Sequence record: MT446415.1
Direction: 5' to 3' (one strand)
Source: Escherichia virus TH44
DNA length: 64,000 nucleotides
The notes below the pieces were generated by a model. It saw only the letters and a program-made list of their open reading frames with translations, had not been told where the DNA came from and searched no databases. Below, in pieces: positions 26,824 to 38,326 of the stretch. Every line of letters begins with the position of its first letter. Positions within the stretch are counted from its first letter, which is position 1. The translations under genes were made by a program, and so were the position numbers.

Positions 26824-27157
26824 TATCGATTTATCTGATTTAGATAATTTCGAGAAAGATGCGGAGGGAGCTAAGGCTCCTTCTGTACCTTACTACGAAA
26901 AAAGTTTGGAGATTATCCGGCAATCCATGGGAACCGTACGACAGGAAATTCTGTTATCACTCCCTGATGGGTCCAGTCACATTGTGTACGTAACCGGAAT
27001 TAAAATTGAACCATCTGGAAAAGTTTCAGTTGATTTCGGCACCCCTTCTGAAGACCGCAAAGCGGAGCTTGCAGTGCATGTAGAAAAGTGTGTTACAATG
27101 CAAATACAAGATGAAATTGATAAGATTAAAATGAAAAAGAGGTGGTGGAAGTGGTAG
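26813..27157 (+). CDS. hypothetical protein (position of T4 gene 40)
   Basis: 114 aa between uvsX and 41. Confidence 0.5.
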   Translation: MMNDIDLSDLDNFEKDAEGAKAPSVPYYEKSLEIIRQSMGTVRQEILLSLPDGSSHIVYVTGIKIEPSGKVSVDFGTPSEDRKAELAVHVEKCVTMQIQDEIDKIKMKKRWWKW

Positions 27158-28581
27158 AAACTATTTTATCCCAGCTACTCTTTAACAAGGAATATTTTGT
27201 TAAAGTCTGGCCATATCTGAATAACACATATTTTGAAAAGGGTCCTGCAAAGACCCTTTTTAATACGATTAACGAACACGTAAAAGAATATCAAGCGGTA
27301 CCAACTAAGACTGCACTTGATATCGCGCTCGACAGTTCTGACCTTTCTGAAGTCGAATATGAAGGCACAAAGAAACTCTTAGGAGTCCTGGCCGATACTC
27401 CAGAAGACCAGGAATGGTTGGTTAAAGAAACCGAGAAGTATGTGCAGAAGTCTGCGATGTTCAATGCCACATCCAGGATTATCGAAATCCAGAGTAATGC
27501 CGAACTTCCGAAAGACAAACGTGATAAACGAATCCCGGATATTGGCGCTATCCCCGACATCATGCGCGATGCATTGTCTATCTGTTTTGACTCTGCTCTG
27601 GGTCATGACTGGTTAAACGATTACGAAGCTCGATTCCAGACTTATCTGAACAAATCGAAGAAGGTTCCGTTCCGTATTAACATCCTGAATAAAATCACAA
27701 AGGGTGGGGTTGAGTACGGTACAGAGAACGTTTTACTGGCCGGGACAAACGTCGGGAAATCCCTTGGACTTTGTTCGTTAGCGGCTGACTATCTTCAGAC
27801 TGGCCATAATGTGCTTTATATAAGCATGGAAATGGCAGAAGAAGTATGTGCCAAGCGTATTGACGCCAACTTGCTGGATGTATCTCTGGATGATATTGAT
27901 GAAGGTCATATATCGTGGGCAGAATACAAAGCTAAGATGGAAAAATGGCGTGCAGCAGGGACTCTTGGGACTCTGAAGATAAAACAATATCCAACTGGCG
28001 GTGCTCATGCGGATACCTTTCGTGCATTGCTGAATGAATACAAACTGAAGCAAGGGTTTGTGCCGGATGTGATTATTGTTGACTACCTAGCAATCTGTGC
28101 AAGCTCAAGACTGAAAACGTTTACCGAAAACAGTTACGGTCTGATTAAGATGGTTGCAGAAGAACTTCGTGGTCTGGCGGTCGAGAAAAATGTGGTCCTG
28201 TGGACTGCAGCACAGACAACCAGGGGTGCGAACGTTGCAGCTGAGATTGATATGGCTGACATCGCAGAATCATTTGGTATTGCTCACACGGCCGACTTTA
28301 TGTTGGGTGTTGTTGAGACCGAAGAATTCGCTCAAATGGGACTACAGTTAATCAAACAGCTTAAGTCTCGTTATGGCGATAAGAACTACTATAATAAATT
28401 CAAGATGGGTGTTAAGAAAGGTAATCAGCGCTGGTATGAGGTTGATGATGATTCAGCTCCTAAACAAGGCCCTACGGTTAAAGAAGCCACTGGTGAGATG
28501 AATCGCCAGGCTGAAATGAATAGACAAACCAGGGTCAACAGGAGCGACCTGGACGACCTTGCTGCTCAAATGAAATTCTAA
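27142..28581 (+). CDS. 41: replicative DNA helicase gp41 (DnaB-like)
   Basis: 479 aa; Walker A 'GTNVGKSLG', RecA-like core. Confidence 0.94.
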   Translation: MVEVVETILSQLLFNKEYFVKVWPYLNNTYFEKGPAKTLFNTINEHVKEYQAVPTKTALDIALDSSDLSEVEYEGTKKLLGVLADTPEDQEWLVKETEKYVQKSAMFNATSRIIEIQSNAELPKDKRDKRIPDIGAIPDIMRDALSICFDSALGHDWLNDYEARFQTYLNKSKKVPFRINILNKITKGGVEYGTENVLLAGTNVGKSLGLCSLAADYLQTGHNVLYISMEMAEEVCAKRIDANLLDVSLDDIDEGHISWAEYKAKMEKWRAAGTLGTLKIKQYPTGGAHADTFRALLNEYKLKQGFVPDVIIVDYLAICASSRLKTFTENSYGLIKMVAEELRGLAVEKNVVLWTAAQTTRGANVAAEIDMADIAESFGIAHTADFMLGVVETEEFAQMGLQLIKQLKSRYGDKNYYNKFKMGVKKGNQRWYEVDDDSAPKQGPTVKEATGEMNRQAEMNRQTRVNRSDLDDLAAQMKF

Positions 28582-28670: not shown

Positions 28671-28919
28671 ATGTTATTAGTTAATGTGCATTACCAGTTC
28701 AAATCTGAAGAAGCTCTCCAAAAGTATGCTGACATTTGTGAGCATAATAAAAGAACAGCTGCCATTGTTGGTCTGAAGCCTTTTAAAATTTTGGATTGCT
28801 CCTTGAACAGAGCAAGGCGCTGGTGTAGTGTTGCCTGTCATGCTTCAGTTGAAGGGAATGATTATTTTTTCATTACTTTCAATGCACAAGATTTTCATTT
28901 AATTAATGAATTAAAATAG
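28671..28919 (+). CDS. hypothetical cysteine-containing protein
   Basis: 82 aa; class-B leader upstream. Confidence 0.5.
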   Translation: MLLVNVHYQFKSEEALQKYADICEHNKRTAAIVGLKPFKILDCSLNRARRWCSVACHASVEGNDYFFITFNAQDFHLINELK

Positions 28920-28998: not shown

Positions 28999-29301
28999 AT
29001 GTTTAATCAAACCGATATGAACCGTTACTATTTTGGTCAGTTCGCTCGCCGTGATGAAAACTGTGCTGCTCTTATCGCATCAGGCATTCAAACTGGTAAA
29101 TTAATAAAGCTCAAAAGCGATGTTCAACCTTCATCTGTTCGCAGCTCTCTTCGTGAGTATCTGCTTGCAGGCGGTGAAGTGTACGTCATCGCTGAACCTT
29201 TTGTTAACGTGTGTGATGATTACACAATTAGTGTGACTGTTATGCACCCAACTACTGGGAAAATTCGTTGTCTGACTATGCACAACTATGAGTTGGCGTA
29301 A
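28999..29301 (+). CDS. hypothetical protein
   Basis: 100 aa ORF. Confidence 0.5.
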   Translation: MFNQTDMNRYYFGQFARRDENCAALIASGIQTGKLIKLKSDVQPSSVRSSLREYLLAGGEVYVIAEPFVNVCDDYTISVTVMHPTTGKIRCLTMHNYELA

Positions 29302-29310
29302 GTGAACAAA

Positions 29311-29332
29311 AGGGGCTTACAGCCCCTTTTTC
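29311..29332 (+). terminator. rho-independent terminator
   Basis: aggggc-ttaca-gcccct + TTTTT. Confidence 0.65.
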
Positions 29333-29370
29333 TTATGTTATAATGACTCTATCAACTACTGGAGAATAAA

Positions 29371-29688
29371 ATGAAAACCATTGATTGCAAGGCAGAATAC
29401 AAAGTTTATTATCATGGGTCAAGCTCTAATGCTGGAATCCAAAATATGCTTTGTCCTCCTGATGCAACTGGTGTTCTGTCAGAAGTTGGACGTAAGAAAA
29501 ATTTAGGGCGTGTGTTTTTTACTGAAGATATTGGTTTGGCGCGTATCTATGCAGGAAGAGCAGCTCGCTCATATGGAGGAGAACCCCGTCTTTATCGTGT
29601 GATTGCACCTGTTGACGTGGTTTGTTTAAATGACACTAAAGGCGCAACAGTTTATCACGCCGCATGGGCGTTTTGTGAGGAAATCTAA
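29371..29688 (+). CDS. small protein with ART/PARP-like 'YHGS' motif
   Basis: 105 aa; 'YYHGSSSNAGIQNM' and 'GRVFFTEDIGLARIYA' resemble the H-G-S and Y-region motifs of H-Y-E ADP-ribosyltransferase folds (recalled). Confidence 0.5.
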   Translation: MKTIDCKAEYKVYYHGSSSNAGIQNMLCPPDATGVLSEVGRKKNLGRVFFTEDIGLARIYAGRAARSYGGEPRLYRVIAPVDVVCLNDTKGATVYHAAWAFCEEI

Positions 29689-29892
29689 ATGTATAAATTA
29701 GAGAACGTAGTGTTTATTGGTTGGTTTGAAAATGGTAATATGTTTACCAAAGAAACCGCGCTGGATGTCAGTGACAAAAATATGATTGAATGGGTTACAG
29801 TGCAGTATGCAGAAGTGAATAATGCGCTGGTTAAAGCCTTTGTTAATGACAATAAAGTTTTTGAATATGATGCCCGCATTGAGGAAATCTAA
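29689..29892 (+). CDS. hypothetical protein, paralog of next ORF
   Basis: 67 aa; shares 'NALV.AFV.D' segment and 'GAGGAAATCTAAATG' junction with 29893..30234. Confidence 0.45.
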   Translation: MYKLENVVFIGWFENGNMFTKETALDVSDKNMIEWVTVQYAEVNNALVKAFVNDNKVFEYDARIEEI

Positions 29893-30234
29893 ATGACTTT
29901 TAATCCAGAAGACCGCGTAAAAGTAACAATCAAAGTGAGTGCCGTTGGCGTTCCATCTTTTGAGCGCTCAAGTATGTTCCATCCCGCAGGTATTCACTGG
30001 TATGTCCAGAAGACTGCTGATAACTATAATGCACTGGTTGAAGCTTTTGTTGATGACAAGCTAATTCATAAAGTAGACATGCGTAAGGGTACTGCATTGC
30101 GTAATCTGATTTTGACCGTTGAAGCTCAACTGGTAAATGAAGAAATCTGCCTTACTGATATTGAAGCGGCTCTTCATATTGCGCGTGCTGAATATTACAA
30201 CTTGACTGGTTTTTCAGTTGAAGGTGAAAAATAA
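29893..30234 (+). CDS. hypothetical protein, paralog of previous ORF
   Basis: 113 aa. Confidence 0.5.
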   Translation: MTFNPEDRVKVTIKVSAVGVPSFERSSMFHPAGIHWYVQKTADNYNALVEAFVDDKLIHKVDMRKGTALRNLILTVEAQLVNEEICLTDIEAALHIARAEYYNLTGFSVEGEK

Positions 30235-30292: not shown

Positions 30293-30586
30293 ATGAAAAA
30301 GTTATTAATCGCAGCAATTCTTACCGTAGCATCATGTGGTACAGCTCCAGTTACTGCTGGACTTGATAAAGACCTTTGTGAGTGGTCTATGACTGCGGAC
30401 CAGACTGATGTTGAACACCAGATTTATGCTGACATCATGAACATTACTAAACGTGACCGCCCAGATATGGTTAAAGAAGTATCTGACCAACTGGCTTCTG
30501 GTGACGTTATGCAGTATAACTATGTTCTGTATTGCGATGCTTCATTTGACAACAGCAAGATTGTTCAATGGGTTACAGGTGAATAA
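30293..30586 (+). CDS. putative lipoprotein
   Basis: 97 aa; signal peptide with lipobox 'VASCG'. Confidence 0.5.
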   Translation: MKKLLIAAILTVASCGTAPVTAGLDKDLCEWSMTADQTDVEHQIYADIMNITKRDRPDMVKEVSDQLASGDVMQYNYVLYCDASFDNSKIVQWVTGE

Positions 30587-36225: not shown

Positions 36226-36786
36226 ATGAACATCATCAAATCTGATACCGAACCCAACCAGTTAAAATTTAGTGAAATGGAGATAGCTTCATTATTTGAA
36301 TGCCGCACATCAAAGGTTGATAAGACCTTGCATTCAAACATCAACGCAATCATCAAGTCAAGGTTGTCTATACCTGATACAGTCTTGTATCGTGGGGTCA
36401 CCCAACAAGAGATTGATTTGTTAGATGAAGCAAAAGAATCAATGCAACCTTTTGAATTTGGACGGATAACCTCCTTTACAGAAGACTATGGTATTGCCAG
36501 GGATTTTGCTGCAATGGAATATGTGTCAAGGACTATCATCAGATTGAATCAGACCAAAGCTTTTTGTTACCATGATGCGATGCGCAAAATCGCGCTTGAC
36601 GTCCCACTGGAATTCTTCAATACTGCTTCTGGTTCCGAACAGGCAGCAACGTTAAGACGTGAAGAATACATGGACATGATTGATTCTGAGCTTGAATGGT
36701 TTGTTCCAGTTGACCAGAAATTCGTGGTGGTTGATGCTGGATTTGTTGGTGATTATTATGTTCTTGACTGTGTACAAGAGCTATAA
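36226..36786 (+). CDS. modB: Mod-type ADP-ribosyltransferase (R-S-E class)
   Basis: 186 aa; 'LYRG' Arg, 'ITSFTED' STS-like, 'ELEWFVP' Glu motif; position as T4 modB. Confidence 0.6.
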   Translation: MNIIKSDTEPNQLKFSEMEIASLFECRTSKVDKTLHSNINAIIKSRLSIPDTVLYRGVTQQEIDLLDEAKESMQPFEFGRITSFTEDYGIARDFAAMEYVSRTIIRLNQTKAFCYHDAMRKIALDVPLEFFNTASGSEQAATLRREEYMDMIDSELEWFVPVDQKFVVVDAGFVGDYYVLDCVQEL

Positions 36787-36830
36787 GACACGTTAAGATG
36801 TTCCTATCAACTACTGATGAGGATAATAAA

Positions 36831-37445
36831 ATGCTGTACACTGATGACGTTTTGAATGGAATTATTGATATTGCTGCTACTAGCGAGTCTTTTCGTAACC
36901 AATGTCAAGCGGAGATTGATGCTCTTTACACAGATAATGAGCAATCAGTACTCTGGCAGTGTATGGAAAATAAACCTGACCTGATTCAAGAAGACTTAAC
37001 CAGGATTATCCGCAACAATCTGAATACTGCACCGCCAGCGGCATTGTTCCGTGGTATATCAAAGAAAACTATGGAATACCTGGAAGATTTCAGATATGTT
37101 GGGGCGACAATTGAGTTCAATCGTGTGATGAGTTTTTCCAGGGACTGGCAGGTTGCAAGAAATTTCGCATCATATAGTTTCTATGGCACAAGGAATATTT
37201 TCTGCATAAACAATGCACCATATGCGTATAACTATCAGGAAGCAATCTTCAAAATGATTTGTGGTGCTCCTCCTGAAGAGTTCAATGGTGCATATCCAGA
37301 AGCAACCAGGAAATCAAACTTACACCTGGTTAATGATGAGGATGAGTTTATGTTTCCCGCTGGGACTACGCTCCGCGTAGACTTGATTGAAACTCACCCA
37401 TTGAATAACCTGTATACTGTTTGGCATTTGACTGTTTTGAACTAA
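36831..37445 (+). CDS. modA: Mod-type ADP-ribosyltransferase (R-S-E class)
   Basis: 205 aa from leader-supported ATG; 'LFRG', 'MSFSRD', 'DEDEFMFP'. Confidence 0.6.
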   Translation: MLYTDDVLNGIIDIAATSESFRNQCQAEIDALYTDNEQSVLWQCMENKPDLIQEDLTRIIRNNLNTAPPAALFRGISKKTMEYLEDFRYVGATIEFNRVMSFSRDWQVARNFASYSFYGTRNIFCINNAPYAYNYQEAIFKMICGAPPEEFNGAYPEATRKSNLHLVNDEDEFMFPAGTTLRVDLIETHPLNNLYTVWHLTVLN

Positions 37446-37579: not shown

Positions 37580-38326
37580 ATGACTTTATCAAAAACCAAA
37601 ACGCTGAAAGTTAAACGTCGTCTGGAACACACTCAAGCTTCCGCTAAACGTCGCGGTAAAGACTTTAACCTGGATTTTGATTATCTGGTTAACATTCTTG
37701 ACCAAAAAGTTTGTGCTTATTCTGGTGAGACATTTAATAACTCTATTGAAGGTGAGAAGTTATCATTAGAGCGTTTTAACAATGATATTGGTTATATCAA
37801 AGGTAATGTTATTCCTGTTAAAAAGAAATACAATACCATGCGTTCTGATTGGTCCCTAGATGAGCTTAAACAACGTCGCGATGATGTTGCTGTAAAAATT
37901 GCTCGCCCGTCCGTCAAGAAGATTGAAAAGTTAAATCTGACTGCAGAGAAATGGGAACAGATTAAAAAGTCATATACCCATATTAAGAACATCCAGCACA
38001 AACGTGATAATCGCGTTAAGCATTATGCTCAAATGAGCAAATCAGAGCAGTCCAAAGAAAACCAATTAAAAATGGTTGCTCTGAAGGCTCGCATTGATGG
38101 TTCCCGTGTTGCGGAAGGTCATGAGCTTACTAAATTGAATGTCCTGCTCAAAGGTAATGACTGGAAGGTTACCAAGAAATTAACTAATGCTGAAACGCTT
38201 TTTGATTGCTATGATAAAATCATTCAAGGTCTTGAGCGTTTTGAGAAGATTGGTTTTATTGGTAAATTAAAACTGAAACGTGGTCTGCCTTTGAACGCGT
38301 CAATTTTTAAACTGATTAGAGGTTAA
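37580..38326 (+). CDS. hypothetical basic protein (position of T4 srd)
   Basis: 248 aa; lysine-rich. Confidence 0.5.
   Translation: MTLSKTKTLKVKRRLEHTQASAKRRGKDFNLDFDYLVNILDQKVCAYSGETFNNSIEGEKLSLERFNNDIGYIKGNVIPVKKKYNTMRSDWSLDELKQRRDDVAVKIARPSVKKIEKLNLTAEKWEQIKKSYTHIKNIQHKRDNRVKHYAQMSKSEQSKENQLKMVALKARIDGSRVAEGHELTKLNVLLKGNDWKVTKKLTNAETLFDCYDKIIQGLERFEKIGFIGKLKLKRGLPLNASIFKLIRG

Follow-up and report, generated by a model that had tools for sequence, protein, structure and literature searches.

Introduction

T-even-type phages are the classic model of viral ADP-ribosylation, and experimental work on it has, to our knowledge, dealt only with the R-S-E enzymes Alt, ModA and ModB of T4. These mono-ADP-ribosyltransferases are early or injected phage proteins that reprogram the host. 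Here we describe a protein found in a similar setting in Escherichia virus TH44 (sequence record MT446415.1; "the window" denotes the whole stretch of 64,000 nucleotides that was analysed). The protein is encoded on the + strand by a 105-aa open reading frame (ORF), hereafter ORF105, which runs from ATG to TAA over exactly positions 29371-29688. ORF105 is almost certainly a protein with the ADP-ribosyltransferase (ART) fold and a site for nicotinamide adenine dinucleotide (NAD), and probably an active enzyme. The T4 enzymes belong to the R-S-E clade and are about twice its size or larger, whereas ORF105 is His-type; its family represents a fourth, His-type ART of the Straboviridae that is missing from T4.

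Two groups of described enzymes come closest to it. Arr proteins (PF12120; PDB 2HW2, 9IAF, 9IBA) are rifampin ADP-ribosyltransferases encoded by bacterial resistance genes; they have 143-151 aa, use a triad of His19, Tyr49 and Asp84, and continue for some 50 residues past the core at the C-terminus. Tpt1/KptA enzymes (PDB 9LD3, 6E3A, 7KW8), which are RNA 2'-phosphotransferases, are two-lobed and use an Arg-His-Arg-Arg tetrad, three residues of which (Arg-His-Arg) are seated in the RNA-binding N lobe. Arr, with a hydroxyl acceptor, and Tpt1, with a phosphate acceptor, both act without a catalytic Glu, and Glu-less mono-ARTs use substrate assistance. Enzymes of the H-Y-E class, such as PARP and diphtheria toxin, carry a conserved Glu, Asp or Gln at the start of strand 5.

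A computational survey reported an ART of the p0068 family beside Dmd in Escherichia, Shigella and Salmonella phages, and counted the p0068-like family, a member of the HY-[EDQ] clade, as one of the commonest ARTs in viruses (Iyer, Burroughs, Anantharaman and Aravind 2022, PMC9503650). The ORF105 family is very probably this same family: in T-even-type phages of Escherichia and Shigella it supplies a predicted ART whose gene directly precedes dmd, and the 609 phage records in which homologs occur are consistent with the reported frequency. It has thus very probably been known as a computational prediction since 2022 and is not new as a sequence finding; a few GenBank records of homologs are already named "putative ADP-ribosyl transferase". 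Establishing its target and a Glu-less mechanism of transfer would widen the known repertoire of phage host-takeover and counter-defence enzymes, and would put to the test the published proposal that the protein belongs to a toxin-antitoxin (TA) pair.

ORF105 has the ART fold, with Arr and the Tpt1 NAD lobe as nearest kin

Three independent lines bear on fold and family, namely structure, sequence profiles, and transitivity through multidomain relatives. An AlphaFold2 model built on a 39-sequence alignment (predicted local distance difference test, pLDDT, 86.5; predicted template-modelling score, pTM, 0.77) has six strands, at residues 13-18, 48-51, 72-81, 84-87, 94-97 and 99-104, together with a long helix at 54-68, and displays the split beta-sheet core of ARTs. 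Structure comparison of the model recovered ARTs, with top figures for Tpt1/KptA (8.4), Arr (7.6), AcrIF11 (6.8) and diphtheria toxin (5.8), followed by TreX (5.8), PARP15 (5.3) and DarT (5.0). A Foldseek search with the model, which an earlier sequence-only reading of this DNA had proposed as a check, returned weak but consistent matches, headed by KptA (E 0.0096, probability 0.97) and Arr (E 0.014, probability 0.99, TM 0.53). That reading had also judged 105 aa to be short for a full ART domain. Length proves to be no obstacle, since the modelled six-strand core is complete and ARTs of 113-143 aa (TreTu, TreX, AcrIF11, Arr) have been solved.

Sequence profiles point in the same direction. 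A profile of 32 diverse relatives (A2), compared with PDB sequences at E <= 10, gave three matches, all of them Arr proteins (2HW2 and 9IAF at 8e-4, ARR-2 at 9e-3), so that among proteins of solved structure Arr alone is a significant relative by sequence. The alignment pairs H15, E38/R41, F49 and Y60 of ORF105 with His19, the E-x-G-R loop, Tyr49 and Trp59 of Arr; the two have in common the H-G-T motif, the E-x-G-R loop and a [YF]-x-[ST] strand followed by a helix that bears an aromatic residue, and both are small proteins of a single domain. The third line runs through the multidomain relatives, many of which pass or approach the Pfam model of Arr (Arr-ms, PF12120): 29 of 55 match it at E <= 1e-4, with a best value of 1.8e-9. 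When ten relatives were checked singly, the match fell in the ORF105-like segment, and three of the ten exceeded the gathering cut-off. Searches of PDB sequences with ORF105 itself (phmmer) or with a profile of its close homologs (A1) gave nothing, nor did a scan of ORF105 against NCBIfam or of ORF105 and three relatives with PADLOC.

The likeness to Tpt1/KptA is of another kind. ORF105 matches the C-terminal NAD lobe only, over 75 aligned residues, and has no N lobe; what the two share is a "YHG[ST]" strand and a second strand of the form "V-[HF]-[LF]-[ST]", and neither has a catalytic Glu. In hhalign, "YHGS...VFFT" of ORF105 lines up with "YHGT...VHLS" of Tpt1, and comparison of profile A2 with two Tpt1 NAD lobes gave probabilities of 7-9%. 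Because these values are too weak, homology to Tpt1 by sequence was considered and rejected as a claim, and the likeness is taken as structural only. No sequence similarity was detected to AcrIF11, the phage anti-CRISPR mono-ADP-ribosyltransferase (PDB 6KYF), and nothing connects ORF105 with CRISPR.

Arr and the Tpt1 NAD lobe are therefore closer to ORF105 than PARP or diphtheria toxin. ORF105 is a sister or divergent subfamily of Arr on the His-type side of the ART superfamily, because it has no Arr-ms match itself while distant relatives pass that model, with 26.9-29.4 bits against a gathering cut-off of 25 bits.

Active-site residues

Both motifs quoted in the sequence-only reading are present as stated in the ORF at 29371-29688: YYHGSSSNAGIQNM comprises residues 13-26 and GRVFFTEDIGLARIYAGRAARSY residues 46-68. 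Conservation was followed over 102 sequences of the domain, taken from 50%-identity clusters. Motif 1 (Y13-Y14-H15-G16-S17; 29407-29421, + strand) lies on strand beta1 and reads H-G-[ST], with T or S at position 17 and a predicted NAD-binding His that aligns with Arr His19 and the Tpt1 "YHGT" motif; H15 and G16 are invariant, as is Y60 (102/102 each). Between beta1 and beta2 follows a conserved basic loop (S37-E38-x-G40-R41-K42-K43-N44-L45; 29479-29505, + strand) that has E-x-G-R in common with Arr. E38 is found in 100/102 sequences, R41 in 99/102, K43 in 87/102 and N44 in 85/102; the loop may serve as a lid, an acceptor site or a place of phosphate binding. Further nearly invariant positions are P29, P30, K43, N44, G69, G70 and G91 (97/102).

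Motif 2 (29512-29553, + strand) consists of V48-F49-F50-T51 on beta2 and Y60-A61 on the next helix, and its aromatic pair would be expected to sandwich nicotinamide. The motif is where the earlier reading had placed it, with one correction: the site at which H-Y-E enzymes have Tyr on strand 2 is here Phe (F49; Phe in 100/102, Tyr in 2/102), and the second aromatic, 11 positions on, is the invariant Y60. F49 pairs with Arr Tyr49 and Y60 with Arr Trp59, "VFFT" lines up with "VHLS" of Tpt1, and T51 is Thr in 99/102 and Ser in 3/102. As judged from the alignments, both predicted NAD-binding motifs, H-G-[ST] and [FY]-x-[ST] with the downstream Tyr, are intact.

The third motif is another matter. 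A conserved Glu, which the earlier reading had suggested looking for, did not turn up. In H-Y-E enzymes the catalytic Glu is held at the entry to strand beta5, here G91-A92-T93-V94-Y95-H96-A97 (29641-29661, + strand; strand 94-97 taken from the model), and position 93, assigned as the canonical Glu site by secondary-structure register rather than by superposition, is Thr in ORF105 and T55, E18, S15, N4 and D3 across the 102 sequences. Glu at this position occurs mostly in domains within giant proteins. E103 and E104 of ORF105 are not conserved outside the T-even-like group. The alignments thus indicate that no catalytic acid is conserved at the third motif, and ORF105 departs from each of the described residue sets. 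Of the Arr triad it keeps His, has Phe for Tyr and varies at the equivalent of Asp84 (positions 87/88, N87-D88); of the Tpt1 H-H-h set it keeps the first His, has Phe for the second ("VFFT" against "VHLS") and carries V94 after position 93; and the acidic or amide residue with which strand 5 of PARP and diphtheria toxin begins is not a conserved feature of the ORF105 family. The ART interpretation of the earlier reading is supported once its nearest kin, the Phe of motif 2 and the missing Glu are corrected.

These departures bear on whether the protein might be a true Arr-type small-molecule ART, one that shields the host RNA polymerase needed by the phage by inactivating antibiotics, rifamycin-like or other, or antiphage metabolites. 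That the family profile finds only Arr proteins in PDB and that Arr-ms matches 29/55 relatives would fit such a role, and a few GenBank records are named "rifampin ADP-ribosyl transferase". We nevertheless hold it to be highly improbable. The match covers Arr residues 12-82 of 143, and ORF105 is 38 residues shorter than Arr-ms and so lacks the part that follows the Arr core; ORF105 has Phe in place of Tyr49, and conservation is lacking at the equivalent of Asp84. Moreover, Iyer et al. list a phage rifampin-ART family (actinophages, PBC5) apart from the p0068-like family, and the use of the domain in injected polyvalent proteins suggests macromolecular targets. Arr is a bacterial resistance gene, whereas ORF105 is a phage early gene and its domain a polyvalent-protein module.

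The missing Glu also raises the question of whether ADP-ribose is transferred at all. As a non-transferring handler of NAD+ or ADP-ribose, ORF105 could be an NADase, or else a binder, sponge or pseudo-enzyme by which immune signals and other molecules derived from NAD are sequestered. Phage sponges for signals derived from ADP-ribose do exist, the protein is very small and stands alone, and a NAD-binder or decoy had already been raised as an option in the sequence-only reading. We regard this as unlikely. The invariant residues are those of active relatives (H-G-[ST], [FY]-x-[ST] and the Tyr), Arr and Tpt1 are active without Glu, and in polyvalent proteins the domain is placed among enzymatic effector domains; NADase-active ARTs are, in addition, under-represented in viruses (Iyer et al.).

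Stand-alone proteins and modules of polyvalent proteins

ORF105 is a genuine, strongly constrained gene, as follows from its match to phrog_2110 over the full length (E 1e-58), its homologs in 609 phage records (phages of Escherichia, Klebsiella, Acinetobacter, Aeromonas, Enterobacter, Vibrio and others) and a low ratio of nonsynonymous to synonymous substitution (dN/dS 0.07-0.24, about 0.1, against nine homologs), which indicates purifying constraint. At 53-99% identity the family is present in most other Straboviridae of Escherichia, Klebsiella, Acinetobacter, Aeromonas and Vibrio, and a profile search of 1.84 billion representatives yielded 245 relatives (50%-identity clusters). No homolog was found in T4 by tblastn or by a six-frame search of its whole genome with a hidden Markov model. 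Small early accessory genes are rarely conserved to this degree, which points to a conserved host target.

The domain comes in two forms, as a stand-alone protein of about 93-150 aa, of which ORF105 is an example, and as a module within proteins of 870-3924 aa. It recurs in giant multi-enzyme proteins of phages and mobile elements, where its partners include a lambda-type portal, a minor tail protein, ART-PolyVal (8 proteins), NUDIX (3) and DUF7178 (3), as well as CHAP, LPD23, 2H phosphoesterase, GNAT, Toprim and ddrB-ParB. Such polyvalent-protein architectures have been read as injected early effectors (Iyer et al. 2017, PMC5512222). Cellular genomes hardly contain the domain: a scan of 185,579 species genomes gave 4 loci, and no bacterial TA or immunity context came to light. 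Two of them have readable flanks, one being a T4-like phage genome in a bacterial assembly and the other a solitary ORF next to a transposase in a metagenome-assembled genome of Kaiserbacteria.

The former (NZ_JBHSCL010000010.1, "Flagellimonas marina", 178,077 bp) carries an ART nearly identical to the copies in T4-like phages of Klebsiella and Enterobacter, and around it lie RB43/Matisse-type neighbours, an Srd-like gene and RNA ligase 2. The contig appears to be an entire T4-like phage genome that entered the assembly through contamination or co-culture. The copy in RB43 itself (RB43ORF243w, positions 1762-2049 of locus L005) is without the N-terminal Y-H-G strand; its annotated start reads LSSITDHVLLPESKG, and its match extends over residues 24-105 only. 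This copy may be decayed or mis-annotated.

In one multidomain relative (P0154, 954 aa, from a metagenomic phage contig), a single polypeptide contains a lambda-type portal, an ORF105-like ART and a domain of the 2H phosphoesterase/Acb1 type. During tRNA splicing Tpt1 generates an ADP-ribose cyclic phosphate that is processed by 2H enzymes, and this fusion, a single case in 55, therefore hints at Tpt1-like chemistry. Under that chemistry ORF105 would be a nucleic-acid ART that places ADP-ribose on RNA or DNA, at a terminal phosphate or a 2' phosphate, with the ends of mRNA or tRNA as its substrates in the RNA-centred conflict to which Dmd and the goF-like gene also belong. A variant of the idea has it capping RNA ends from attack by host RNases, or marking tRNA or mRNA, within an RNA-protection module formed with Dmd and the goF-like protein encoded nearby. 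Besides the fusion, one may cite the alignment of "YHGS...VFFT" with "YHGT...VHLS", the conserved basic loop together with a median isoelectric point (pI) of 9.3 among stand-alone members, and the neighbours, goF-like and Dmd here and rnlB in RB43 and Matisse. If true, this would be a new reaction type in phage counter-defence and the smallest known nucleic-acid ART. We think the general proposal very unlikely, and the RNA-protection variant no less so: the hhalign probability for Tpt1 is 7-9% only, ORF105 lacks the RNA-binding N lobe that seats three of the four tetrad residues, its own pI is 8.4, the 2H fusion occurs in 1/55, and the neighbourhood links differ between phage clades.

A probable mono-ART effector

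Taken together, we read ORF105 as probably an active, early, stand-alone mono-ADP-ribosyltransferase that serves as a host-takeover or counter-defence effector. Early expression is expected because a promoter-like site precedes the gene and the gene lies in an early block; transcription would start at this site and take in dmd. The 11.5-kDa product would fold into the six-stranded ART core and bind NAD+ through H15-G16-S17 on beta1, F49 and T51 on beta2 and Y60 on the next helix, with F49 and Y60 in the role of the aromatic pair, Tyr-Tyr or Tyr-Trp, that sandwiches nicotinamide in diphtheria toxin and Arr. The basic loop (E38, R41, K42, K43 and N44) may close the site or hold the acceptor. Because no catalytic Glu is conserved, a single ADP-ribose would be moved onto a good nucleophile, by analogy with Arr, Tpt1 and Glu-less mono-ARTs.

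As acceptor we consider most likely either a component of host defence or a macromolecule that gamma-proteobacterial hosts have in common, as the conservation of the protein in phages of several gamma-proteobacterial genera suggests, and the role as an effector is proposed because the domain is embedded in polyvalent proteins that are read as injected early effectors. ORF105 would act alongside the two Mod-type ARTs of the window.

Several observations weigh against this reading. Position 93 varies and is Thr in ORF105, and the region equivalent to Arr Asp84 is variable too; the loop with E38 and R41 is modelled at moderate confidence (pLDDT 65-75). ORF105 has no match in Pfam, and none to PF12120 even at E <= 10, while Arr-ms matches only 4/39 close homologs, at E of about 0.08. 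No universal neighbour, such as an antitoxin or immunity gene, accompanies the ART across the 56 loci surveyed below, so the neighbourhood gives no pointer to a target. In the literature, we found no biochemical or genetic data for any member of the family, and a HIDEN-SEQ preprint on T4, Bas37 and Bas54 does not mention the gene.

Linkage to dmd

In the proposal of Iyer et al. (2022), ORF105 would be the toxin of a phage-borne type II TA pair and Dmd its cognate antitoxin. The local arrangement invites this interpretation, as the start of dmd (29689-29892, + strand; 67 aa; Pfam Dmd PF17587 at 74 bits; 57% identical to T4 Dmd) directly follows the stop of ORF105. The junction reads TAAATG (29686-29691), with both genes in the same frame and no gap between them. 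The same survey describes Dmd as a promiscuous antitoxin of RnlA and LsoA and also mentions Dmd beside a Mod-like ART in some Klebsiella phages (PMC9503650). One read-through event at 29686-29691 would yield an ORF105-Dmd fusion.

Linkage was surveyed in 56 distinct IMG/VR loci that contain the ART, within a 3-kb radius. Dmd was present in 10/56, in each case as the next gene downstream, and these loci all have an ART with 79% identity or more to ORF105; in all ten of these (10/10) it abuts or overlaps the ART gene. The other 46/56 have no Dmd-like gene within 3 kb, including three loci (L015, L017, L022) whose ART is 86-87% identical to ORF105, so that ART and Dmd do not form a conserved adjacent pair. 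Downstream neighbours depend on the clade (in nine loci a small membrane protein, in others different small ORFs), and unrelated genes follow the ART in Acinetobacter, Aeromonas, Vibrio, RB43 and Klebsiella phages; no alternative conserved partner emerged. T4, for its part, carries Dmd directly after gene 41 and has the ART nowhere in its genome. Abutting or 4-nt-overlapping small genes are usual in these loci (gap of -4 or 0 nt in 27 of them), and the TAAATG junction therefore probably reflects tight packing or translational coupling.

The distribution of ORF105 thus lends the published TA reading no support, and we consider that reading distinctly unlikely. Given Dmd in 10/56 loci, a T4 Dmd without the ART and junctions that are commonly gapless, ART and Dmd have the appearance of adjacent early accessory genes and not of an obligate TA module, and any functional link between them may be limited to a clade.

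Genomic context

The window belongs to a T-even-type phage, and its part around ORF105 is 96-98% identical to Escherichia phages UPEC01, TH41, 212 and PSD2001, Shigella phage SP18 and phage VR20 (genus Gaprivervirus). The early gene block runs in the order gp41, goF-like, 100-aa ORF, ORF105, dmd, Dmd paralog and spackle, with gp61 further along. Upstream of ORF105 lie the gp41 helicase gene (27142-28581), an 82-aa goF-like "mRNA metabolism modulator" (28671-28919, + strand; phrog_2980) and a 100-aa protein of unassigned function (28999-29301, + strand; phrog_17014).

Between the 100-aa ORF and ORF105 (29371-29688, + strand; phrog_2110; Arr-like and probably "p0068-like") lies a compact terminator-promoter junction at 29308-29344. 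A sequence scan placed a terminator-like hairpin with a 10-bp stem and a T tail at 29308-29330 (+ strand), which would close the upstream transcription unit; the scan found 7 terminator-like sites in the region against 1.4 expected. At 29316-29344 (+ strand) stands the best promoter match of the region, a putative sigma-70/T4-early-like site of the form CTTACA-17-TATAAT with an upstream TG (10/12 matches to the consensus), and its -35 hexamer, CTTACA, falls within the loop and descending arm of the hairpin. A GGAG ribosome-binding site can be read at 29361-29364 (+ strand), 6 nt 5' of the ORF105 ATG, and dmd is probably co-transcribed with ORF105.

Downstream of dmd, a second Dmd-type gene encodes a 113-aa paralog with a C-terminal extension (29893-30234, + strand; phrog_23762 at E 2e-64; weak Pfam Dmd match of 19 bits; blastp of about 1e-7 to T4 Dmd). 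The window thus has a tandem Dmd duplication, and the 113-aa paralog is not present in SP18. The gene was also considered as a homolog of T4 61.4, which occupies the same position in T4, and this was rejected for want of any similarity. Spackle (sp, 30293-30586) lies 3' of the paralog. T4 has nothing between gene 41 and dmd, only a 58-bp gap, whereas the window holds the goF-like gene, the 100-aa ORF and the ART there, which makes the 41-dmd junction a hotspot for the insertion of small early genes.

The sequence-only reading had also noted two Mod-type ARTs in the window, and both are found. They are adjacent R-S-E genes at 36226-36786 and 36798-37445 on the + strand, each assigned to phrog_832 (E 7e-28 and 2e-38) and neither with a Pfam match, and Srd (37580-38326) lies 3' of them.

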